Below, piece after piece: positions 1 through 11,768 of a stretch of DNA of 29,538 bases. The stretch is from Candidatus Altiarchaeota archaeon (GTDB lineage: Archaea; Altiarchaeota; Altiarchaeia; IMC4; SCGC-AAA252-I15). A program made the position numbers and the translations under genes. Under the pieces are notes generated by a model. The model ran no database searches, had not been told where the DNA came from, and saw only the letters and a list, made by a program, of their open reading frames with translations. The stretch is taken from positions 1 to 29,538 of the forward strand of contig JAZDMS010000030.1 in assembly GCA_043800705.1 (NCBI GenBank). The letters run 5' to 3'. How positions within the stretch are numbered: the stretch's first letter is position 1; every line of letters starts with the position of its first letter.

Positions 1-123
1 ATACTCGGAGGTTTGACCAATAATCTACCTGGTGGTAGCAGCCTGCCATGCTGCAACCTCCTTGGAATGCTGCCTCTGGCGGCATTGACAGCGGCTTTAG
101 GCAAAGCAAAGTGGCTCCTATGA
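1..123 (+). CDS. 3' end of a surface protein with a Cys-containing C-terminal membrane anchor (partial, not in ORF track)
   Basis: Frame 1 reads ILGGLTNNLPGGSSLPCCNLLGMLPLAALTAALGKAKWLL then TGA at 121-123. The Cys + hydrophobic + basic tail resembles those of 360..1220 and 4811..7711. Confidence 0.7.
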   Translation: MLGGLTNNLPGGSSLPCCNLLGMLPLAALTAALGKAKWLL

Positions 124-217
124 AGTTTGGATATACTGAGATATGTGTGTGGTACCTCCATCTATAACCTCTTTTATCCTCTCATATCCAAGAGTAGTAC
201 AGAAACACGGAGTGCTT

Positions 218-250
218 GTACCCGCTGAAAGGAAGCCCGATCGGGGCGTC
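218..250 (+). repeat. Intergenic motif copy R1
   Basis: GTACCC-N14-CGATCGGGGCGTC. The 13-nt core at 238-250 is identical to 2638-2650 and 4556-4568. Confidence 0.85.
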
Positions 251-359
251 TAATAATTCGACATATCGAAAACGCTTTTCCTCAACGTTTTTTTTAAAGA
301 AATGACGAATTGTATGGAGTATACTGAATTATATAGACCTACTATTAATTCTATTCTGG

Positions 360-1220
360 GTGGATTGTATGGTTTCGGTTAAGCGCCTTTTTGCAGGGTT
401 TGCCGTTGTTTTTCTAATTGCGTCTTTTGTTTCTTCCGATGAGTTGGATCCTATGCCTCCGTTTTACCTGAACCTGAAGTTTAACGCTGGAGGTGCAGCT
501 GATGATAAGACTGCAATCACCACATACTGCGGTTTTTGGAGTTTGCTCAATCAGGGTTACGGTCCACTTAAGTTGCAGGTGGACAAAGACGGCAATATCG
601 ACAACCATTATGAGACTTGGACCGAAATGATGGATGAGAAAACCAAACAAAAAGTGAGGGATTACGGCGACTTGCATATCGTCGGAAAATACGTCAACGG
701 GAGGATAAGGGGGACATGGACGTACAAATACGAGCAGCATCTGACCCGTGGCGGCGTACCACAAGATAGGTTTTATACTGGGGAAGGGGACTTCTACACA
801 ACGGAAATATACTGGGATTCCGGCTATGCAGATGGGCTCCTTGAGGGAAAAATGACCCGCACAATACATGACTGGGCAGCATACGGGACCCCACAACAGC
901 GCCAAACAGAGCATACGGAGACAACAGATGTCAAATATACCTGGGTAGGACGCCGTCCCATGGAAAAGTGCGGAGACGGAAAATGCCAGAAAGATGCGGG
1001 GGAGGGTTGGGACACATGTTGCAGAGACTGCGGATGCAAGAATAAGGGCATTGATAAATGCGATACCTCCGTCGTCCCGGAAGGAAAATGCCCGGGATTA
1101 GACATAGACCGTTTTTCGAATGGATTCTATCATGCTTTATGTGACAAGAATTTAGGGCTCGTATTACCATTAATCTCGTTTATATCAGCTCTCGCATTAA
1201 AAATAACAAGACTATACTAA
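360..1220 (+). CDS. Secreted/surface protein with Cys-rich CGDGxC module and C-terminal anchor
   Basis: N-terminal signal peptide; CGDGKCQKDAGEGWDTCCRDCGC; tail CDKNLGLVLPLISFISALALKITRLY. Start is GTG 360 or ATG 369, with TTATATA at about 329-335. Confidence 0.85.
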   Translation: MDCMVSVKRLFAGFAVVFLIASFVSSDELDPMPPFYLNLKFNAGGAADDKTAITTYCGFWSLLNQGYGPLKLQVDKDGNIDNHYETWTEMMDEKTKQKVRDYGDLHIVGKYVNGRIRGTWTYKYEQHLTRGGVPQDRFYTGEGDFYTTEIYWDSGYADGLLEGKMTRTIHDWAAYGTPQQRQTEHTETTDVKYTWVGRRPMEKCGDGKCQKDAGEGWDTCCRDCGCKNKGIDKCDTSVVPEGKCPGLDIDRFSNGFYHALCDKNLGLVLPLISFISALALKITRLY

Positions 1221-1260
1221 AATCTGATATAATAAAACTAAGAGATGCTGGTTCTACCTC

Positions 1261-1317
1261 CCCCGGCACTATCGGGGCGGCGTTAGCCGGGTTCATTTCC
1301 TCTTTCGGGATTTGAAC
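1261..1317. terminator. GC-rich hairpins between convergent genes (possible terminator)
   Basis: CCCGGC/GCCGGG (1262-1291), alternative CCCCG/CGGGG, and GTTCA...TGAAC (1291-1317), lying between the stops at 1220 and 1319. Confidence 0.3.
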
Positions 1318-1318
1318 G

Positions 1319-1852
1319 CTATATTTTGCCTTGTGCCTTAAGTTTTTTCAACCACTCGGATACTTCTTTTTGCGCGTTTTTTGCGTTTCCGCCGCGGATT
1401 GCAAGGCCGTCGAGGACGGTTGACTTCCGGCAAGTCTCCTTTATTTCTTCCACGCTTCTTCCCAGTTGGCTTCCTTCGTGGGTGCAAAAAGGCGCGATGA
1501 TCTTTCCATAAAAGTCGTATTCCATCAAGAAAGATGCGACCGGCCGGGGAAACGTGCCCCACCAGTTCGGGTAACCCAAGAATATCACTTCGTACGAATC
1601 CATGTCTTTCACATGGCCGGTAAGCATTGGTCTGACGTTGTCGCGCAGTTCTTTCTGTGCAACCTTCGTGGTTTCCGTATAATCTGCGGGATAGGAAGTT
1701 ACTGTTTCGATGCGGAAAACATCGCCGTCCGTCATCTCCTGAATCATCTTTGCCACCACTTCCGTGTTGCCGACTGGCAAATCCACAATGCTTTCGCCGG
1801 CAAAGTTGTTGCCTTTACGTGAAAAATAGGCTATCAGAGTTTTCTCATCCAT
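1319..1852 (-). CDS. Flavodoxin
   Basis: KTLIAYFSRKG...GNTEVVAKMI, IFLGYPNWWGT, PFCTHEGS. Start is probably MDEK at 1852 behind GGGAG; the ORF-track extension to 1963 overlaps the upstream gene. Confidence 0.93.
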   Translation of the reverse strand: MDEKTLIAYFSRKGNNFAGESIVDLPVGNTEVVAKMIQEMTDGDVFRIETVTSYPADYTETTKVAQKELRDNVRPMLTGHVKDMDSYEVIFLGYPNWWGTFPRPVASFLMEYDFYGKIIAPFCTHEGSQLGRSVEEIKETCRKSTVLDGLAIRGGNAKNAQKEVSEWLKKLKAQGKI

Positions 1853-1869
1853 TGAAATCATGCTCCCTA

Positions 1870-2505
1870 TTAATCCCGGATAAAATTTGTGAAGACATTT
1901 TTCTCCATCGTAGGTAGTGGTACGCCGGCCTTTGCGCCTGCTTCTTTGATTTTCAGAAACCATGCCATATTCCGGGCGAGGACGCGCATGGTCTGCAGTC
2001 CCTCCAGGTCTTTTTTCACATCTTCCGGCTTGGCGCCGCGGACCATGTTCCAGTAGCGGGAAGAGATGACCGGCATCTGCGATATTGTGAAGTACTTGTT
2101 CAGCTGGTCAAAGGTGGCGGTTGTCCCTGCTCTCCTGGCTGAGACGACTGTCGCCGCCGGTTTTAGGTAAAAGGATTTCCGGTTGGATTGCATGTCTGCA
2201 TAAAATAGGCGGTCCATGAAGGAGGTGATTGCGCCGCCTGCGGCGGCATAATGCACCGGCGACCCGAAGACAAATCCATCCGCATCTTTGGCAAGGTCGA
2301 GGAAGTCGTTGACGCAATCGTTAAAGACGCAGCGCCCAGTCTTTGCGCAGGATTTACATGCAATACAGCCGGCCAAAGGCTTTGTTCCAATCTGGAATAT
2401 CTGTGTCTCTATTCCCCCGGCATTCAATGTTTTTGAAACTTCTTCAAGGGCAGTGTAAGTACAGCCATTGGGGTGGGGGCTGCCATTTACCAACAAAACG
2501 TTCAT
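1870..2505 (-). CDS. Iron-sulfur flavoprotein / NADPH-dependent FMN reductase family protein
   Basis: MNVLLVNGSPHPNGCT; CIACKSCAKTGRC (Cx2Cx2Cx5C); DGFVFGSPVHYA; SARRAGTTATFDQLNKYF. Start is probably ATG 2505. Confidence 0.93.
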   Translation of the reverse strand: MNVLLVNGSPHPNGCTYTALEEVSKTLNAGGIETQIFQIGTKPLAGCIACKSCAKTGRCVFNDCVNDFLDLAKDADGFVFGSPVHYAAAGGAITSFMDRLFYADMQSNRKSFYLKPAATVVSARRAGTTATFDQLNKYFTISQMPVISSRYWNMVRGAKPEDVKKDLEGLQTMRVLARNMAWFLKIKEAGAKAGVPLPTMEKNVFTNFIRD

Positions 2506-2616
2506 ATTAATCCTAACCACTTAACACGTATTAAGTGTTTTCAGCAATTTTTTCCTTACCAAAAGTGGCGTATTTTGTCTTTTTTATAATCAAAGAGCCT
2601 ATGTGTCATTAGGAAT

Positions 2617-2650
2617 GAACCACGTTGGCCGGCAGCGCGATCGGGGCGTC
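2617..2650 (+). repeat. Intergenic motif copy R2
   Basis: GAACCA-N15-CGATCGGGGCGTC. Confidence 0.85.
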
Positions 2651-2770
2651 TTTCTATGGGGCTATACATAAGGGGAAAAAAGACGCGATTAGACAGCTAT
2701 AGTAGGCCGTGACAAATAGTGGTCTCCGTGTATAACCTGTTACTTCTTAACCTGATAGAGTGGACTTCTT

Positions 2771-3004
2771 CGCCGACGTAACATAACTCGTCGGCGTGAC
2801 AGAACATAACATAGTCAGTTGGTGTGGGAGAGATAGTCGTAGGTCGGAGGGCTAGGTAGCCTGCCCCCGCAGAGGGAGGCCTTCCTGAAGACTACTGCGT
2901 AGGAAAGCGTAGCGGAAGGGGCGAAAACCGTTCAAGTTAAGGGTTCAGACATGGTAATCATGGTTACCAATACGTAACCCTAACGGTTATAATGGGCGGT
3001 AGTC
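2771..3004. ncRNA. Candidate structured RNA or ssDNA element, family not recognised
   Basis: No ORF of 60 aa or more. Stems CGCCGACG/CGTCGGCG, CCTTCC/GGAAGG, AACCGTT/AACGGTT enclosing AGGGTT/AACCCT, and long-range GACTACTGC/GCGGTAGTC. Confidence 0.4.
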
Positions 3005-3282
3005 ATAATTAAACGGAGAATATTTGCGGAATACAATCCTAGGCTCTGGCTATTCACAGGAATTACGACCCACTAGCGTTAACTTTTTCCCCGAGATACC
3101 AGCCGACCAATCATTCTCTGCTCAGACCCCCTATCCCGGAACATCCCCTGCAGGCTGCGATAGCTTGGACGGACTATATCGTAATCCGGTGACAGAACCC
3201 CCCCAAATGAACAATTCTCACGAAAGAGCCGAATTGACAATAAGACACTATACAATAATCAAAATGGATAGAGGTGAAGAAT

Positions 3283-3993
3283 ATGCTTAGGAGCTTGAAA
3301 AGTATGATGGAGTATGCATTAAAGGCAGAGGATGGAGACATAGGTTCAGTAATCGACTTCTTTTTCGACGATGCGGAATGGAAGATGAGATTCATGCAGG
3401 CAGACACGGGAGGATGGCTGCAAGGTAAGAAGGTCCTTATTTCCCCTGAGTCTATCGGAAATATAGACTGGAGAGACATGAAAGTCCCAGTGAACCTATC
3501 CAAGGATAAAATACGCGAGAGTCCTGAGTTTAAGTTTGCCGACCCAATGAGGCGCCCCCAGTGGGAGATGATTTGCAAGTATTACGGTTGGAATGTAGAC
3601 TGGTACAATTCCAGCGCCACACTCAGGAGTTTGAATCAAGTGAGCAGTTATAAGATTCACGCAAGGGACGGTATGTTAGGGAACATAGACGACATGATAC
3701 TCGAGGATGAGACGTGGACCATAAGGTATTTTGTCGTCGACATCAGCGGACTCCTCTTCGGCAAAAAAGTCCTTATGTCACCGCAGTGGGTAGACGAATT
3801 CGTTGATGAAGGCAAGGAAGTACGCCTTGACGTCATGAAGGACAAGGTGAAGTCTTCGCCGATTTACGACCCGGATAAACCCATCAACAGGGAATACGAG
3901 GCGGTCGTCTTCGATTACATGGGCAAACCAAGTTACTGGAGGGATGTAAAAAGCTCGCAAAAGAAAAACGCAGCAGGCAAAACCACGAAATAA
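3283..3993 (+). CDS. PRC-barrel domain protein (two PRC-barrel repeats)
   Basis: MLRSLKSMMEYALKAEDGDIGSVIDFFFDDAEWKMRF...DTGGWLQGKKVLISP, with a second repeat IHARDGMLGNIDDMILEDETWTIRYFVVD. GAGGTG lies upstream; start is ATG 3283 or GTG 3274. Confidence 0.92.
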   Translation: MLRSLKSMMEYALKAEDGDIGSVIDFFFDDAEWKMRFMQADTGGWLQGKKVLISPESIGNIDWRDMKVPVNLSKDKIRESPEFKFADPMRRPQWEMICKYYGWNVDWYNSSATLRSLNQVSSYKIHARDGMLGNIDDMILEDETWTIRYFVVDISGLLFGKKVLMSPQWVDEFVDEGKEVRLDVMKDKVKSSPIYDPDKPINREYEAVVFDYMGKPSYWRDVKSSQKKNAAGKTTK

Positions 3994-4092
3994 TACTCGA
4001 TAAGAAATATTTTTGAACTTTAAGATTTCGTATTTCTTATCGTTAATTTTATTGCCGTATTTTTTCCCATTCTGGGGGGTGCGGCTTGTTTT

Positions 4093-4172
4093 TTTATCCG
4101 ATAAAGCGCAGAAGACTACCTCCTTTAGATGGTAGCTGAATGCATGGGACACTTCTGCGCTTTATGGATAAA
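4093..4172. mobile_element. Palindromic element made of two head-to-head IS200/IS605-like left ends
   Basis: TTTATCCGATAAAGCGCAGAAG (4093-4114) is inverted at 4152-4172 with one bulged base, around an inner hairpin CTACC/GGTAG. 4093-4143 matches 23918-23968 at 42/51 positions without gaps. Confidence 0.6.
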
Positions 4173-4199
4173 TACCGCGCGTTTAGGTCGCGGATATTT

Positions 4200-4381
4200 A
4201 TTTTTTTTAGGTTACTGCGTCTCCTCTCAACGTCCGGTTGGATGATTCTCCTGCAAAGAGACGGATCCTTAAGTTGGGCTGCCCTCGCGGACCAGCAGAT
4301 GTCCCTGTCTATGTTGTAGAAAAACTTAGAGCAGTTAACCCCGGAAGTTCCTGTGGTCGTAGTAGTGGCAGCGCAAGGCAA
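4200..4381 (-). pseudogene. Fragment of a Cys-repeat surface protein
   Basis: TTTTTGTSGVNCSKFFYNIDRDICWSARAAQLKDPSLCRRI resembles DxCxxxxAxxxKDxxLCxxI repeats. There is an in-frame stop just upstream and no signal peptide. Left boundary is approximate. Confidence 0.45.
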
Positions 4382-4536
4382 GCCTCATTGCCAATAAACC
4401 TTAGGATAACTGATATAAACTATCAATCCTCTCTCTTGCAGATGAATATATTTTTCGACCGCTTTATCCGAGTTCCGTCATCAATTAACAACCTTTGATT
4501 TATATTTTTGTAATGCATATTTTTAAAAAGAGATTC

Positions 4537-4568
4537 GAACCCAGTAAAGGAATTCCGATCGGGGCGTC
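4537..4568 (+). repeat. Intergenic motif copy R3
   Basis: GAACCC-N13-CGATCGGGGCGTC. Confidence 0.85.
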
Positions 4569-4659
4569 CGTAGAAACGCTTAATTATGTGTTATATTTGG
4601 TTTTTAGGCTGTATTGTTGATTTTTCCAGGTTGGCGGGGCTTCGAACCCACTTATTCAG

Positions 4660-4746
4660 TTAGTTATTATCTGTTGTTTGTCGTCGGGGTGGTGGTGGTA
4701 GTGTGAATATTATTGTGGTTCCTTTGTCTACTCCTTCGCTTTCCAT
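4660..4746 (-). pseudogene. Remnant C-terminus of a histidine kinase ATPase domain
   Basis: Reads MESEGVDKGTTIIFTLPPPPRRQTTDNN*, matching the terminal ESxGxGKGTxFxFxLP strand of HATPase_c. The upstream in-frame sequence is unrelated. Confidence 0.55.
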
Positions 4747-4810
4747 CTTCCTTTTTTGCGGCTGGCATTCTTCGATTTGAATTTTTATCCGGTGATGTTG
4801 TTTTGTTATC

Positions 4811-7711
4811 ATGGGTAGACTTATTGTTTGCTTGATACTTTTTCTTATACTTCCCTTGTTTGTCTGCGCTCAGGCGTGGACAGACTGCGCCGGCAATGTC
4901 GCATGGGGTGGCGCAGAAGCGAAGTCAAATGCGGCCGGCCTCTTTATGGAGATGCCTGAGGGCATCTATTACCTGCAGGCTGTCAAGGTCAAATTCTATG
5001 TCAATGACCTGAAAATCAGAAAAGACGCTAAGGCCTTGCAGTTCTCCTCTGAGGGCAGGTTTTATCCCCTATCGGATAAGCCGATTTATGGAACTAACGA
5101 CTTCCACCAGGTCATGAAATACAGCGGGGAGCAGACGTTCGAGGTCGGTTTCAGGAACTGGGACACATTCGAGCAGACTATCCCAGCGCACGTTTACTTC
5201 TACGACGTTCGCGCATACCCGGTCGGGGCCAAGCTAGCCGAGTATACTGTGCAGAAGAACAACGCGAGCTCCGACTGGTACGGGTGGAATTGCGTGCAGA
5301 AGAGGTTGGGCGAGGCCCTCTGCAACGGTGCGACTGAATGCGACGTCTGCCTCAAGATCTTGGGGGAGGTGGCGCGCCAATACAAGTCACTGCCTTCGCA
5401 GGTCACGGTCGCATCCCCGTCATACGTCCCGTACACTGCGCAGCCAGAGAATGGGAAGAAGAACACGGCGGTCGCCAACTTCTACTTTGGCAAGTCGGAC
5501 CAGGCGACAGGCTGCCACAAGAACTACGGCGTGCAGATACTGGCGATGCAAACGACCATAGCCGAATTCATGAAGACAGAGATGCAGTTGGCGGGCACAG
5601 ACGGGAAGAAAAAAGACACATCGCCGCTGGGCGGAAGCACGTCCGGGAAAGCCTACGAGGTACGCTGGGAGGACGCTAAAGCTGAAAACTTCCCCTGCGC
5701 CGGGGTAGCATGCGACTCCAACCAGAACTATAGGGGGCGCATCGACACAATAACCGAGATGACTCCGGCCGGCAGCGGAACGTATCAAATAATCCAAAGC
5801 GTCTCCGACTGCAACAAACCAGGCAGCATAAAGTCCGCAATCGACGGTGCGGTAACAGATGCCCGCAAATCCCTGGCAAGCTACAAGATCACGGGAGACC
5901 CTAAAACTGACTTCAAAAGCAAGGTCTGCTACTGGCCGGCCGCTAACGAATCCAACAACGCCACCGCAAGTATACAAGGGTACGTCTACTACGTCGACTA
6001 CACACAGGGGGGCGGAGTCAACATGCCGATAAAGAACGCGTACGTTGTGTTCAGATATGCTGACAAGAGTGGGGTCCGGCACGAGGATGACAAGAAGTTC
6101 AGGACTGAGACCGACGACAAGGGTTTCTTCAGCTACGAGAACAAGAACATGTTCGCCATAGGGAACAAGCTCGACATACTGGTAGATTTCAACAACAGTC
6201 AACATAAGGTGTCGGTCAGTAGTAATAGGGGGGACCGGAGGATACTACATTTCATTAGGGGCGCCGACACGCAGGACAAGAAATTTGAAAATTATCAGAT
6301 GAACTTACGTGAAAGCCAGTTCTATGAACTATCAGAACTCGGAAGGTTATACGCCGAGGTATTGAGGGCCGTCGAATTCAAGGAGAACGTCCTAAAGCTC
6401 ACGGGCACGGTGGCGGAGAGCGTCCACATCGACCTAAACGACGGTACATGGCATTCCATCGAGACGAACAGCCCCACATCCAGATACCCCCCCGGCATAT
6501 GGATTAGGGCGAATAACGCTGAATTCGATGATTGGACTGCACCCATCAACAGGGAATACCATGAATACTGCCACCACATTTATTACGCGGAGCTTGAAAA
6601 CCCCACCGAGCAGGCAAGACGTCAGGCAGGCACGTTCCACGCAGGCTATTCAGTGAATCCCGACACGGACAGCGCCCTTACAGAAGGCTGGGCCGAGTTC
6701 TGCGCCCTGATGATTAGTAAGCACTACGGCGGAGGCAGCACGGGATTATATCCGGTTGGCGGCAGAAACACCGAATGGAATATTGAGGCGAATTACAAGA
6801 TAGACGAGAAGAATAACTTCGCTGCCGAGGAAATCTCCATCGCAGGTGTACTCCTCGACCTTGAGGACTCTGGCGAAGATTACGGAGGCTCCGATGACGA
6901 CCCAGTTTCGCTTGGACTCGACGAAGTCTGGAAGGTGTTCTCAACACCCCGAGATTACGGAGACGGAAAAGGGGTTAGACATATCTGGTACGCCCGAGAC
7001 CTATACCTCGCATTCCACAGCCTGAACGACCCACGCCTTGAGGGCAGGTTCAAGGCAGGCAGCAACCGCACCAATCTCGAACAGGTATTCATACTCCACA
7101 ACATCTTCCAAGACAAGAACAACGACTCGAAATACCAGGAGGGTGAGGTACCAGGGTACTCTGGCAAGTACGGGAACCTGAGGATGGACGCGACCAGTCA
7201 GGATGGTACCGAACTTGTCATGGACGTAACCGACCAGAACGGTAAAAAGTTCGGTGGACTCTACGCGGACGTCGACGTTGCGTTCGCAGAACCAAACAAG
7301 AAACTATCCTACAAGTACCGGTTACCGGTGATTGACGGACAAATCGCGGTCCCCCTGCCACCCCACGACTACGACACGATAGTGACGGTCACAGCAGTCC
7401 AGGGAGGCACGAATAACAAGGCAACGAATTCGTTCAAAATCACGACGAATGAGATGTTCGAAAAACTCGATCCTAAGAAGCCGATGGGCACCTACAAGGC
7501 GACCGTGAAGACCGCTGATGTCTCCTGCAAGAAGGACGACGAATGCATGTTTTACCGTGCAGGAAACGCATGTAAAACCGGTAAATGTGTGACAGGGACG
7601 GTGAAAAACACGGCAGAGGCTTCGACAAACTCTCCATGCAGTTGCATACCCCCTTTAACAGCACTACTAGCAGGACTCACTGCAGCAGCCGTGAGAATCA
7701 TCAAAGTGTAG
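4811..7711 (+). CDS. Large secreted zinc metallopeptidase-like surface protein with C-terminal anchor
   Basis: Signal peptide; HEYCH (HExxH) at 6560-6574; downstream ALTEGWAEF (candidate third ligand Glu at 6683); tail SPCSCIPPLTALLAGLTAAAVRIIKV. Confidence 0.88.
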   Translation: MGRLIVCLILFLILPLFVCAQAWTDCAGNVAWGGAEAKSNAAGLFMEMPEGIYYLQAVKVKFYVNDLKIRKDAKALQFSSEGRFYPLSDKPIYGTNDFHQVMKYSGEQTFEVGFRNWDTFEQTIPAHVYFYDVRAYPVGAKLAEYTVQKNNASSDWYGWNCVQKRLGEALCNGATECDVCLKILGEVARQYKSLPSQVTVASPSYVPYTAQPENGKKNTAVANFYFGKSDQATGCHKNYGVQILAMQTTIAEFMKTEMQLAGTDGKKKDTSPLGGSTSGKAYEVRWEDAKAENFPCAGVACDSNQNYRGRIDTITEMTPAGSGTYQIIQSVSDCNKPGSIKSAIDGAVTDARKSLASYKITGDPKTDFKSKVCYWPAANESNNATASIQGYVYYVDYTQGGGVNMPIKNAYVVFRYADKSGVRHEDDKKFRTETDDKGFFSYENKNMFAIGNKLDILVDFNNSQHKVSVSSNRGDRRILHFIRGADTQDKKFENYQMNLRESQFYELSELGRLYAEVLRAVEFKENVLKLTGTVAESVHIDLNDGTWHSIETNSPTSRYPPGIWIRANNAEFDDWTAPINREYHEYCHHIYYAELENPTEQARRQAGTFHAGYSVNPDTDSALTEGWAEFCALMISKHYGGGSTGLYPVGGRNTEWNIEANYKIDEKNNFAAEEISIAGVLLDLEDSGEDYGGSDDDPVSLGLDEVWKVFSTPRDYGDGKGVRHIWYARDLYLAFHSLNDPRLEGRFKAGSNRTNLEQVFILHNIFQDKNNDSKYQEGEVPGYSGKYGNLRMDATSQDGTELVMDVTDQNGKKFGGLYADVDVAFAEPNKKLSYKYRLPVIDGQIAVPLPPHDYDTIVTVTAVQGGTNNKATNSFKITTNEMFEKLDPKKPMGTYKATVKTADVSCKKDDECMFYRAGNACKTGKCVTGTVKNTAEASTNSPCSCIPPLTALLAGLTAAAVRIIKV

Positions 7712-7787
7712 AACACACAAACATAGTATGTCCTCAGTCTATCTGCGATAGGTTCATATAGTCTCTTGCGTAATTAGGTATGAGAGA

Positions 7788-7863
7788 TGAACCCAAACGC
7801 CTAACTCCTCCCCCAAAACGGTTGGGCGTTGAACCCGTTCGCCTAAAGCGCGATCTGGGCGTC
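7788..7863 (+). repeat. Intergenic motif copy R4 with a degenerate tandem unit
   Basis: GAACCC-N14-CGATCTGGGCGTC at 7831-7863 (one core mismatch), preceded by TGAACCCAAACGCCTAAC...GTTGGGCGTT at 7788-7830. It lies between convergent genes. Confidence 0.8.
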
Positions 7864-7982
7864 TCTTATCACCCAAACCGGTCCTTGTATGATCCTACGA
7901 TTGGGCTGCCACAACCAGAAAGCTGTGCAAAATCCTGGCAGAGTCGTTGTGGCATGTGTTTGGGTTCAGGCGTGATTTGTCT

Positions 7983-8648
7983 TTATCGGTTTCCTTTGTG
8001 GAGCGTCCTTTTGACCTCATCATACGACGTCTTGCAGTAGTACGTCATCCAGCTGACAATAGCGAACCATTTGAGCCCGTCTTCATACAGGTACTGCCAG
8101 GTGGATACTGCGTTATAGATCTGGTCAAAAACTAGCGAGCCGCCGAAGAGGAGGATGGCAGCGAGCAAAATCACGTAATCGGTCGCCTGGAGTACCGACC
8201 TAAACCAGTAGGCGTAGGCGGCGAATACGAGCCCATAGACTCCAAAGGTGATTATCTCAGTGATATTGAATAGGTACGGGGCGATGGTCTCATGGACAAG
8301 GAACAGGTCATCGACCAGGAGTATCAGCGTGATGAAGCCGGATGCCAGAAAAAAACCCGCATGGTTATTCCTTTTGCCGAAGCGCTTGACTATGGCCGCA
8401 GTATAAAAGCACACGGCTGCGGTGGCGGCCCACATGAGTACGCCCAGGTTAGAGTACACGCCGACGAAGGGGCTCATCCTCATCAGGTATGTGGGGTCCC
8501 TGGTCAGGTTGCCGAAATTGACCCCGCTACGATGGGAAAAAAAAACCCCCGCGCCCAGCAAAACAAACGCCGGCAAATAGAAGGCCGCCACCCATCCGCG
8601 GGCCGCCTTAAGCTGGTGCCTGACGCTTAAAACCATATGTCCTCTCAT
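7983..8648 (-). CDS. Integral membrane protein, about 6 TM segments
   Basis: Hydrophobic segments with conserved-looking polar motifs RDP..PFVGVYSNLG, LLVDDLFLVHE and YEDGLK. Confidence 0.85.
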   Translation of the reverse strand: MRGHMVLSVRHQLKAARGWVAAFYLPAFVLLGAGVFFSHRSGVNFGNLTRDPTYLMRMSPFVGVYSNLGVLMWAATAAVCFYTAAIVKRFGKRNNHAGFFLASGFITLILLVDDLFLVHETIAPYLFNITEIITFGVYGLVFAAYAYWFRSVLQATDYVILLAAILLFGGSLVFDQIYNAVSTWQYLYEDGLKWFAIVSWMTYYCKTSYDEVKRTLHKGNR

Positions 8649-8753
8649 TATGTATGGGTTAAAATAAGCTAAGAAATGGCGTCTTCATACTGGCAGACGA
8701 TTGACTGGGGGCAGATTAGGGTGCTTTTATGTTCCAACGGGGAATTAGGGGCT

Positions 8754-9458
8754 ATGAAGGGATTAATTGCATTGGTATTAGCGTCTTTAGTGCTTGGCTG
8801 CGTCACCTCCTATAACAGCGAACTATCAGTCGGTGTCAACGGGTCGGCCTCATTCAATAAGTCGTTCGGGACTCAGACGACCCAGCTCAAGAAGGCGGTC
8901 ACCACAACTCTGGCCGAGACGGTCCCAACGACGACCGTCACGGCTGAGATTCTGCCCACCACCACGACAACACCTGCTGGGGAGGTCCTGGCGGCCACCG
9001 GCATCGGGTTGACGTTCACGCCCGACAAGGAGACGGTCGCGTTGAGCGAGAAGTTTTGGGAGGACCTGATGTTCACGAACCTCGATTCAGCGAAGAACTA
9101 CTCAGTCGTGATCCACACGTATTCCCCTGGCGGATGGGGCGACGGGGGGCAGGATGTCAACATCGCCTTCGCCGACTCGTTTGCCCGCGAAAACGGCATA
9201 ACGACTTTCGGCTTCGGGATGCCGATTACGCCGTTCACCCACAAGGAGGATGGATACGCCTCGGAGATGGAGTATTTCACCCGGAAGGGCGAACATCACT
9301 ATGACATAAGCGTCTACGACTGCACCCTCATAGAGCAGACGACGGGCGCCGAGAACTGCGGCCGCGGCAAGCGCCTGATAGGCGAGTATGAGAACCCCGA
9401 CGTATGGAATGGCCAGCAGGCAGTATTCCACTTGGACAAGGTCATAACCGTGACCTGA
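8754..9458 (+). CDS. Putative lipoprotein with Thr-rich linker
   Basis: MKGLIALVLASLVLGC lipobox from ATG 8754 (in frame with the 8676 ORF); TTT-rich stretch. Confidence 0.8.
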   Translation: MKGLIALVLASLVLGCVTSYNSELSVGVNGSASFNKSFGTQTTQLKKAVTTTLAETVPTTTVTAEILPTTTTTPAGEVLAATGIGLTFTPDKETVALSEKFWEDLMFTNLDSAKNYSVVIHTYSPGGWGDGGQDVNIAFADSFARENGITTFGFGMPITPFTHKEDGYASEMEYFTRKGEHHYDISVYDCTLIEQTTGAENCGRGKRLIGEYENPDVWNGQQAVFHLDKVITVT

Positions 9459-9518: not shown

Positions 9519-11768
9519 CTATGTCGTTAGCTTCTGTGCCAGGCGGTTTTCGAGTATCTTGGTCAGGGATAAGGACCAGTTTTCTCCTGAGGCGATGCCC
9601 AGCTTTCCGAGCTCGTCCGGACTCGGCCTCCTGAATCCGATTCCATCGGAGACCATGATGCCGCTGTCGCCTTTGTTCAGGCCCCAGTCGGTGTTTTGCG
9701 GGTCGGCGGGTGCGGCCAGATTAGGGTCTATTTTCTCGGCTCCTGGGCTTTTCGGGTCGTATACGTCGTCGATGCTGTAGATCACGGTCAGGGCTTTGGG
9801 ATTCCTTTCCCTGGCGATCCTCAGGACGGTTCTCCCGGTCCGCCCTATGCATTTTTCCTCATCTTCTACGGCCTTAGCCAAGTGTGGGGCCTCGAGGACG
9901 TAGTCCGAGACGACCGCGTCGAAGGGGGTCTCGCTTGCCTTCAGGAATTCGTTCACTGTCGTGCATACGACTGCTTCGATCTTGCCGCCGAATGTGCCGT
10001 CCAGCATTTCCTTGAACATTTCCGGGAATTCCCTGAAGTCGTCGACGAGGATGACCCGAGCCTTCGCAGGGCCGCTGGAGGTTTTAAGCGGTTCCGCCTC
10101 GCGGACTCTGCCGGTAGCCTTCGGAGGCTCATCGTCATCGGCATATCTCATAGCCCTCGAATACGGGATTCCGGCGGGTTTAGCGGTCTCGGTTGCCTCG
10201 CCTTCGGGTATGAAGATTGTGGCGCCGGTGCTCTCCCCCCGCTTTTCGAACTGGAGGAAGCCGGGGACGTTGGGGAGGATGTCGGCCATCAGGCTTTTCA
10301 GCCCGGTGCCTCCGGTGCCGAATGCGCTTTCGCCGAGGACTGATGTGTCTCCGCGGTTCAACGCCTCCATCATGTGTCCCTCCATCTGGCGGCCGTTGTT
10401 GTGTATCGCGAGGTAGACGAATTTGCCTTTGACGCCTGCAGCCTGGAAGAATTCCATTGCTGCCGGCGGCAGGCTATTCCGGGAGAAGGAGCAGCCTGTT
10501 ATGCCGACCTCAGGCTTTTCCGCCTGTTTCGCGGCCTTGCAGGCGTTGGTTACGAGTTCGCAGAATGCGGTGTCGAAGAGGACGGGGTCCACGTTCGCTG
10601 ATCCGACGTCCTCCCAAGGGGCCCTGTATCCTATCTGGACGGAGTGCATCGAACTCAGATTGGGAAGGACCGCAGCCATGTATTCGGCTATGTTGACCTG
10701 CGTCCTCTCCCTCTTTTTGGAGTTGCGGTAGTATCCGAGTGCCGAATCATAGAGTTTGAAGAGTCCGGGCGCGTATTCGGCGGCGGCTGCGCCCAATCCG
10801 TCGTGTTGGCGGGAGGTTTGGGCGACGAGGTCTCTGCAGAGGAGGAGCCTGTTCAGGAGCGCATGGGCGTTGGGGTGCGATGATCCCGCCGCAATCATGA
10901 GGCTCTCGAAGGAGAACCTCTTGCCCGTGTTCTCGGCCTCAACGGCTTCGACCGCCTTTCTCAGGGTCTCATTGCCTGCGTATCCGGGTTCCTGTTTCGC
11001 CCTCCTTGCGAACCTGTTGAAGAACATGAAGAAGTCGTTCCCCGCCCCTTCAAGCCTCGAAATCCAGTACTTGGTGGGTGTAGTCTCCCTCCTGCCCACG
11101 TTCAATCCCGCTAGTATGTCCTTTATCAAGGCTCCGACGACGCTTTCTAGCGGGCTTATCTTCTGGCCGAGCTTTTCAGCCTCCCTGCCGGAATGAAGCC
11201 TGACGATGTCGAGCCTCGCTGCGAGGATGTCGAAGTTGTCTCCTTTGCACATGAAATCCACGAGGACGGGAAGTCCTGGGACTGCAGCGATCTGTCTCAA
11301 CTCCCTGTCTTTGAGCTCCGCCGTGTATACTCCCCTGATTATGCCCTCGGTTATCTGCTCTCTTGCGGCGACGGTTTCGGGGTTCGACCAGCTGCCGGAC
11401 CTCACGACCGTCGGGACGACGAGCCTGTTTTCCCCGAGGTATGCGAGGACGCCTTCGCCGTGGATCTCGTCGGGCTTGTCCCCAAGGCAGAAGTCGAGGA
11501 CCATGCAGTCGACTGCCCTCTTGGACAGTATGTCCGTTGCCTCCTTACCGCTCCTTGCCTCGAGGAAGACGGCATCCTTGTAATGCCTTCCAAGCTCCTT
11601 TATGGTCATCTCCCGGGTCAAATCGTCGTCTTCAACGACCAGGATCGTAGGAGCCGCCCGTAGCGGCTTCAGGGAGTCGGGAACCTCGAGCCTTGGAGAA
11701 GGCTTCAGCAAGTCGTCGACGGAGGTTCGGACATCCGCAACGACATGGGCCTTTGGAGTGGGTTGCAT
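9519..11768 (-). CDS. Divergent hybrid kinase: REC - HisKA-like/HATPase - REC
   Basis: N-terminal ILVVEDD...MVLDFCL; AHALLNRL; ELVTNACKA (N box); IHNNG; GTGGTGL; C-terminal VILVDD...VVSDY. Confidence 0.82.
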   Translation of the reverse strand: MQPTPKAHVVADVRTSVDDLLKPSPRLEVPDSLKPLRAAPTILVVEDDDLTREMTIKELGRHYKDAVFLEARSGKEATDILSKRAVDCMVLDFCLGDKPDEIHGEGVLAYLGENRLVVPTVVRSGSWSNPETVAAREQITEGIIRGVYTAELKDRELRQIAAVPGLPVLVDFMCKGDNFDILAARLDIVRLHSGREAEKLGQKISPLESVVGALIKDILAGLNVGRRETTPTKYWISRLEGAGNDFFMFFNRFARRAKQEPGYAGNETLRKAVEAVEAENTGKRFSFESLMIAAGSSHPNAHALLNRLLLCRDLVAQTSRQHDGLGAAAAEYAPGLFKLYDSALGYYRNSKKRERTQVNIAEYMAAVLPNLSSMHSVQIGYRAPWEDVGSANVDPVLFDTAFCELVTNACKAAKQAEKPEVGITGCSFSRNSLPPAAMEFFQAAGVKGKFVYLAIHNNGRQMEGHMMEALNRGDTSVLGESAFGTGGTGLKSLMADILPNVPGFLQFEKRGESTGATIFIPEGEATETAKPAGIPYSRAMRYADDDEPPKATGRVREAEPLKTSSGPAKARVILVDDFREFPEMFKEMLDGTFGGKIEAVVCTTVNEFLKASETPFDAVVSDYVLEAPHLAKAVEDEEKCIGRTGRTVLRIARERNPKALTVIYSIDDVYDPKSPGAEKIDPNLAAPADPQNTDWGLNKGDSGIMVSDGIGFRRPSPDELGKLGIASGENWSLSLTKILENRLAQKLTT

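Follow-up and report, generated by a model that had tools for sequence, protein, structure and literature searches.

The closest described systems to the repeat arrays analysed here are tRNA-associated islands, cis-mobilizable elements (CIMEs) and integrons. The arrays consist of four direct repeats (R1 to R4) in a 29,538-nt stretch of DNA from Candidatus Altiarchaeota archaeon (assembly GCA_043800705.1, contig JAZDMS010000030.1; the window) and of six further copies at the end of another contig, C4, of the same genome. The window is the complete contig C41 of an assembly of 2.0 Mb in 43 contigs with 55% GC. PYG1 of Pyrococcus yayanosii is a 21.4-kb tRNA-Gln island with 44-bp repeats, a tyrosine integrase, and one complete and one partial tRNA copy (PMC9897764). 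In the tycheposons of Prochlorococcus, a tRNA stands at the near end of the island, partial tRNA copies lie between the elements, and remnants and partial tRNAs are scattered (bioRxiv 10.1101/2020.12.28.424599). Streptococcal CIMEs have kept their attachment (att) sites attL and attR, have lost the genes for integration, and are stacked in tandem by later integration into att (PMC5704250). Integrons, including archaeal ones, are arrays of short accessory blocks ending in recombination sites with a conserved core (bioRxiv 10.1101/2022.02.06.479319).

As in PYG1 (PMC9897764), the direct repeats of the present arrays are partial tRNA copies. Unlike PYG1, there are ten repeats (runs of 7-18 nt), the blocks measure 0.95-3.3 kb, the tRNA is tRNA-Asp, and no integrase was found in the assembled arrays; a complete tRNA-Asp together with a partial copy occurs in the same-genus genome G002, and in this assembly, where no tRNA-Asp with this 3' end was found, both arrays run off contig ends on the expected side. 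The separation of elements by partial tRNA copies is shared with the tycheposons. These are bacterial, and most are described as having an integrase and a replication module of their own, whereas no such modules were seen in the present blocks and some arrays lie away from a tRNA. The likeness to CIMEs consists in integrase-less modules that are flanked by att sites and stacked at one att specificity. CIMEs are derived from conjugative or mobilizable elements of Firmicutes, and their mobilisation in cis has been demonstrated; the present modules are much smaller and more numerous. Compared with integrons, no IntI gene adjoins the array, the core is a tRNA end, folded attC hairpins are missing, and the blocks hold one to three genes in either orientation, where integron cassettes mostly have a single promoterless ORF in one orientation; in both cases such arrays break assemblies. 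No description of tRNA-targeted integration in Altiarchaeota was found among titles and abstract openings of the literature on the phylum, integrase and tRNA. The repeats of this genome are probably tRNA-Asp att repeats produced by serial site-specific insertion through tyrosine integrases. The locus is of the familiar genomic-island kind, unusually finely divided, in a little-studied archaeon.

Repeat core and the 3' end of tRNA-Asp

A sequence-only reading of the window had described four same-strand copies of an intergenic motif, with a 13-nt core that was exact in three copies and carried one mismatch in the fourth, and had taken them for a candidate non-integron cassette array. All four copies were confirmed (Table 1). 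The pattern CGATCKGGGCGTC was matched exactly at each of them on the plus strand, the core being CGATCGGGGCGTC in R1, R2 and R3 and CGATCTGGGCGTC in R4, and the distances between successive copies were 2400, 1918 and 3295 nt. When up to two mismatches to CGATCKGGGCGTC were allowed, seven matches were obtained in the window, the other three with two mismatches each; in 100 shuffled sequences the mean was 2.02, and seven was never reached (0/100). Together with an upstream box, G(A/T)ACC(C/A), the cores form elements of up to 34 nt, whose flanks beyond the 33-nt motif could not be aligned among the four copies. The copies lie between open reading frames (ORFs) of at least 50 aa, as had been claimed, save for R4, which overlaps an 86-aa ORF (7780-8040) without family match. 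Neither motif nor profile searches revealed an inverted or additional copy in the remainder of the window, again in agreement with the sequence-only reading.

The 13-mer occurred four times in the entire 2,003,634-base assembly, always in the window, and its exact form gave only five single matches in 40 relatives. The minus-strand copies on C4 first emerged when the core was relaxed. With a profile of the 44-nt element, exactly ten genomic copies were obtained, i.e. four in the window and six at the end of C4, all of the latter on one strand; the next match had an E-value of 0.31. R4 has a long form of approximately 120 nt, which it shares at 81-83% identity with two copies on C4 (67751-67629, 61332-61209) and which carries two direct copies of TGAACCC-N3-CGCCTAA plus an inverted CGCCCAA. 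A search of 40 relatives with the 131-nt long form yielded no match below an E-value of 0.01. The long form may be an arm with binding sites.

The 3' ends of tRNA genes are a classic target of tyrosine integrases. A search of 61 genomes of the phylum with the bare 11-mer CGATCGGGGCG revealed same-strand pairs 1-2 kb apart in G002 and G003, both of the same genus. ARAGORN predicted a tRNA-Asp(GTC) in locus L074 (G031:C102) that ends in ...GGGTTCGAATCCCGATCGGGGCG / ...GACTCGGGTTCGAATCCCGATCGGGGCG, and in intron mode tRNA-Asp(GTC) genes with the same 3' end in G002 (L066 c[8657,8821], with an 89-nt intron) and G040 (L076 c[1563,1686]). The core CGATCGGGGCG is therefore the last 11 nt of tRNA-Asp(GTC), starting with the last three nucleotides of the T-stem, followed by the 3' strand (7 nt) of the acceptor stem and ending with the discriminator G. 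An unknown kind of cassette signal unrelated to tRNA is thus not supported, and the apparent new signal was replaced by a precise, testable identity of a known att kind. The exact runs common to the ten copies and the tRNA end of G002 measured 15, 13, 14, 7, 8, 18, 10, 14, 11 and 11 nt, and the four window copies also match the two bases (TC) that follow the G002 gene. On the minus strand the box reads GGTTC(A/G) and looks like a T-loop. Just upstream of the tRNA-Asp of L074 (G031:C102), at 1653-1760, two tandem units of 54 nt were noted, each consisting of about the first 22 nt of the tRNA and a spacer; they may be repeats of the 5' side.

Integrases and arrays in related genomes

Integrases that adjoin the core were directly observed in relatives. 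A 350-aa Phage_integrase of G014 lies between a 22-nt tRNA-Asp 3' copy and a second core 9.8 kb away, and a PIN/MazE pair and another site are located just beyond this element. In G031 and G040, integrases of 397 and 420 aa directly follow the 3' end of tRNA-Asp. The three enzymes are homologous (30-54% identical). The earlier suggestion that the motifs are recombination scars bounding acquired blocks is borne out by these integrases and by the identity of the core. When one genome per species was scanned with an alignment of the G014, G031 and G040 enzymes, 58 loci across archaea were obtained, the closest of which were titled Altiarchaeota. One Altiarchaeota record (L091) encodes an integrase 91% identical to that of G014, with a tRNA-Asp 494 nt away that is convergent and has no exact core. 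A co-oriented tRNA ending within 700 nt upstream of the integrase was found at 18 of the 58 loci in default mode (hand count) and at 14 in intron mode, the union being 22 of 58; these tRNAs span many tRNA species. To judge from such neighbourhoods, the integrase family is one that targets tRNA genes.

The head of such an array is seen in G002, where a gene for a 439-aa Fic protein comes after tRNA-Asp and a direct core repeat lies 1.6 kb downstream on the same strand. A second arm type, GT(A/T)TCCCCCACCTAAACCGAACA-N3-TGTTCTAGTCCCGATCGGGGCGAA, was present at no fewer than nine sites in G003 (nine by BLAST); in this genome it was represented by one copy on C4 and a degenerate one on C2. A 45-nt arm of this type, ending in the core, was matched 18 times with scores of at least 24 bits, and the cargo at these places is unrelated. 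A run of five sites in G003, spaced 0.7-1.4 kb apart, reaches the end of its contig, and its blocks hold Fic, an MNT/HepT pair, DUF7557 and unknown genes. Three different things terminate in one and the same 48-nt arm (82-92% identical), namely the 9.8-kb integrase element of G014, a 1.6-kb Fic-only module of G002 and an 85-nt empty remnant of G001. A Fic module was recovered in three contexts (G003:C4, G003:C45, G000:C2), its copies being 73-80% identical; the homology ends 3-6 nt past the module's own core, and its left boundary lies 90-120 nt past the upstream core, not at that core. A hot spot is indicated by a core copy after RsgA in G000 (this genome), G001 and G003; the cargo behind this copy differs among the three genomes.

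Across the arrays, the cargo was rich in toxin-antitoxin and Fic genes; besides toxin-antitoxin pairs and Fic, Cys-rich proteins with N-terminal hydrophobic stretches have been met so far. Toxin-antitoxin cargo is also common in integrons. Further cargo comprised a MazE/PIN pair, RsgA, a SHOCT protein, an ICMT-like methyltransferase, and large and small Cys-rich proteins. The att core, three arm types and the integrase family provide a means to mine the islands of the phylum.

In the Fic modules (L071 6599-6700, 7560-7620; G000:C2 41270-42290), three direct TGTAGTCATAT repeats precede the gene and an inverted pair follows it; these repeats are probably the module's own operator. In viral contigs, the GAACC pattern with the 13-mer core gave single matches in 40 contigs, with about 33 expected by chance (hand estimate); none had two pattern matches, and just nine weak profile matches were obtained. 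An 'empty site' by aldolase II was uninformative, as the G000 and G001 homologues are only 48-50% identical.

Proposed origin and alternative explanations

Under serial insertion, a tyrosine integrase would recombine a circular element, at its copy of the core (attP), with a chromosomal core (attB), the latter being either the tRNA-Asp gene or an earlier core copy. Every insertion would leave a direct repeat of the core, so that repeated insertions would build a same-strand array of the form core-block-core-block. To the left of each core, a variable stretch of 20-110 nt would represent the arm brought by the incoming element, and the small integrase-less blocks would be decayed remnants, or satellite modules using an integrase in cis or trans. 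We infer the recombination itself and its order. The repeated insertion contained in the earlier proposal of cassette acquisition was retained; the blocks may be true mobile cassettes or decayed remnants.

Several observations weigh against this origin. The tRNA sequence accounts for neither the conserved GAACC box nor the 120-nt long form. Four of the ten copies share an exact run of just 7-10 nt with the tRNA end (at most 13 nt in seven of ten), which is short for an att site, and blocks of 0.95-3.3 kb are far below the usual size of integrative elements. The C4 array and several G003 arrays adjoin ordinary genes and not a tRNA. No tRNA-Asp with a core-type 3' end was detected in this assembly, and neither array is headed by a tRNA-Asp gene. 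Intron mode of ARAGORN returned a 'tRNA-Asp(GTC)' at C14:124359-124455 on the minus strand, which has an unrelated 3' end. This call requires an intron inside the anticodon, and the sequence may instead be read as a tRNA-His(GTG) whose 22-nt intron would occupy the canonical position 37/38, with G-1 and C73. Finally, no integrase of the G014/G031/G040 family, or fragment of one, was found in this genome.

The sequence-only reading had assigned the responsible enzyme to a location elsewhere, and no matching recombinase was indeed present in the window or the assembled genome. No integrase gene was found beside the sites of the window or of the C4 tail. The sole PF00589 match of the genome, and its sole tyrosine recombinase, is a Xer-like protein of 259 aa at the end of contig C17 (G000:C17:142-990), separate from the contigs of the arrays; as a possible IntI it scored 168.6 bits on TIGR02249 in two stretches, below the cut-off of 265. 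The G014 integrase matched only this gene in the genome (30% over 150 aa), and its 443-aa neighbour gave no match. Serine recombinases were not found in the genome. Both arrays point away from contig ends, i.e. the ends lie on the side expected for tRNA-Asp and integrase, and we infer that both genes are located in unassembled DNA past these ends. The tRNA-Asp att identity accounts for the assembly breaks at both arrays and predicts a tRNA-Asp with a CCCGATCGGGGCG end, perhaps with an integrase, in the gaps. An overlap of 105 nt joins the right end of the window to the start of contig C6, and the contig thus runs on at that side; no overlap exists for the left end.

Two side observations concern these gene searches. 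Many tRNA genes of the phylum contain introns and were missed by ARAGORN in default mode (21 versus 34 calls). In several genomes of the phylum (G023:C5:478, G024:C22:506, G008:C56:579 and C17 of this genome), Xer-like recombinases of approximately 260-280 aa are encoded some 500 nt away from the end of a contig, as if hard-to-assemble DNA lay upstream of them. Xer-like neighbourhoods in G023, G024, G026 and G028 contained neither arrays nor tRNAs.

A dedicated cassette platform, in which the 1-3-kb integrase-less modules are themselves mobile and are captured and shuffled by an integrase encoded elsewhere, is unlikely; as a special case of serial insertion, it overlaps with the latter in probability. 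Each module would consist of a 45-120-nt arm and the tRNA-Asp core, on which a tRNA-Asp-specific tyrosine integrase would act in trans, at tRNA-Asp and at secondary cores of the RsgA/HDAC type; this scheme, too, is tentative at best. The logic would be that of an integron, but the place of folded attC hairpins would be taken by a double-stranded site that mimics a tRNA. Mobility of modules is suggested by the Fic module in its three contexts with homology ending right behind its own core, by the 48-nt arm shared by three different things, by the 18 second-type arms with unrelated cargo (nine in G003 alone), by differing cargo at the RsgA core in three genomes, and by the abundance of toxin-antitoxin and Fic genes. 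However, the left boundary of the Fic module does not coincide with a core, the divergence of its copies indicates old modules without evident recent movement, the genes in the blocks face both ways, and none of the four same-genus genomes (0/4) had a Phage_integrase (PF00589) match. Serial insertion is ordinary biology with a known signal in an under-described phylum, and small modules acting as cassettes are the more interesting possibility: if it were true that they move alone, a cassette platform on tRNA-type sites would stock toxin-antitoxin, Fic and surface-protein genes.

A structured RNA or single-stranded DNA element, such as an attC-like hairpin or a tRNA-like processing signal, would agree with the stable folding of the long form on the plus strand (-33.3 kcal/mol, z = -4.22, 0/200 shuffles as good), but the three short window copies fold no more stably than shuffles on either strand (z from -0.41 to +1.93), and compensatory pairs were absent from three long copies (0/31) and from 16 copies of the second arm type (0/3; consensus -1.97 kcal/mol). 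The sites of the arrays are conserved in sequence, not in structure. No Rfam family was assigned at the sites (window 1-9000 at E up to 5, C4 tail at E up to 1), neither the window nor the tail of C4 gave a tRNA prediction with ARAGORN, and RYYYAAC/GTTRRRY end boxes were absent by eye. A structured element is accordingly rated as very improbable, and the sequence-only statement that the motif is no canonical integron attC was upheld. Still less probable is a local regulon with an operator next to the promoter or with a conserved 5' leader, in which GAACC-N14-CGATCGGGGCG, immediately 3' of a TATA box, would be the binding site of a regulator. In several copies, AT-rich or CATATA-like boxes seen by eye precede the GAACC box by about 25-30 nt, and a co-oriented gene begins within 110-375 nt after six of the ten. 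Four of the ten nevertheless precede the 3' end of a gene, the core is the tRNA-Asp end and bounds integrase-bearing elements in relatives, and the pattern GAACC-N12-18-CGATCKGGGCG was matched once (in G041) among 60 other genomes of the phylum. Least probable of all are ends of an insertion sequence (IS), a miniature inverted-repeat transposable element (MITE) or an HUH (IS200/IS605-type) transposon. Orientation on one strand without terminal inverted repeats is reminiscent of HUH elements, and the sequence-only reading had pointed to such an end; yet no match to Y1_Tnp (PF01797) was obtained in the genome, the copies are confined to two contig ends without the scatter of IS or MITE ends, and the DDE transposase of the window lies 17 kb off. 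An origin (origin recognition box, ORB) or replication-terminator (Ter) function had been considered since the arrays would face apart if C4 and C41 abut; the ends of these contigs do not overlap. Promoter/leader, ORB and Ter readings were dropped because the core proved to be a tRNA end.

Blocks and surrounding genes

The ten same-strand cores enclose eight integrase-less blocks of mutually unrelated genes. Positions 1-5000 of the window have a GC content of 43-49%. The blocks are accessory DNA, as seen from their low GC, their mutually unrelated proteins and a content that is not kept in relatives. The coordinates of sites, blocks and genes are compiled in Table 1.

Table 1. Repeat sites, blocks and genes of the arrays (window positions unless contig C4 is named; element, upstream box plus core)
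Feature	Position	Strand	Remarks
Site R1	212..252	+	core 238-250; element 218-250; 15 nt (CCCGATCGGGGCGTC) identical to tRNA-Asp 3' end + 2 flanking nt of same-genus G002
Site R2	2611..2652	+	core 2638-2650; element 2617-2650; 13 nt identical to tRNA-Asp 3' end plus flank
Site R3	4530..4569	+	core 4556-4568; element 4537-4568; 14-nt run; 19/20 (by eye) match to AAATCCCGATCGGGGCGTC of tRNA-Asp locus
Site R4, long form	7742..7864	+	core 7851-7863, one mismatch (T); element 7831-7863; final copy before rest of contig
Six C4 copies	69302-69264, 67669-67630, 66714-66675, 64241-64204, 62907-62868, 61249-61210	-	found by profile; end of contig C4
Block 1	253..2610		GC 46-49% vs 55% in the genome
286-aa Cys-rich protein	360-1220	+	block 1; N-terminal hydrophobic stretch by eye; no family match
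Flavodoxin_4	1319-1963	-	block 1
FMN_red (Isf-like)	1870-2520	-	block 1
Block 2	2653..4529		between R2 and R3
PRC-barrel protein	3274-3993	+	block 2
Repeat fragments	3988-4340		block 2, upstream of R3; also at 23918-23968 and on contigs C2, C14, C42
Block 3	4570..7741		GC 52-55%
966-aa protein	4811-7711	+	block 3; N-terminal hydrophobic stretch by eye; no Pfam/NCBIfam family

The mixed cargo described by the sequence-only reading was recovered, with a flavodoxin/FMN_red pair, a PRC-barrel protein and proteins with an N-terminal hydrophobic stretch. Kinship of the 966-aa protein with a 964-aa protein of G003 was rejected, the two being unrelated on comparison. The truncated gene scraps reported beside R3 are present, but they were identified as repeat fragments; these and their counterparts elsewhere in the genome (Table 1) appear to be related to group II introns. 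Gene content across the motifs was not conserved in relatives, and the two genes to the right of R4 (7983-8648 and 9519-11768) were each not found in 10 relatives. The C4 array starts right after a conserved HDAC (histone-deacetylase) gene, and the synteny of the relatives stops at exactly that point; beside the HDAC gene, a site was present neither in G001, G003, G005 and G006 nor in four metagenome contigs.

Farther right in the window, a match to the group II intron domain V/VI of Rfam was located on the plus strand at 24116-24189 (43.7 bits; gathering score 40). RVT_1 reverse transcriptases were not found in the genome, so the intron-like copies look ORF-less or decayed. A DDE_Tnp_1 transposase of an IS element (24996-25898, minus strand) is unrelated to the sites. 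Two response-regulator genes also occur in the rest of the contig. A response-regulator ortholog lies 1.2 kb from a G003 array in an otherwise rearranged neighbourhood, and synteny is therefore not claimed for the window array. The rest of the contig (11946-22728 and 26037-29537) is dense in likely surface or secreted proteins, among them proteins with thrombospondin type 3 repeats or with a VWA and a phospholipase A2-like domain, and a papain-like protease with a PEGA domain.

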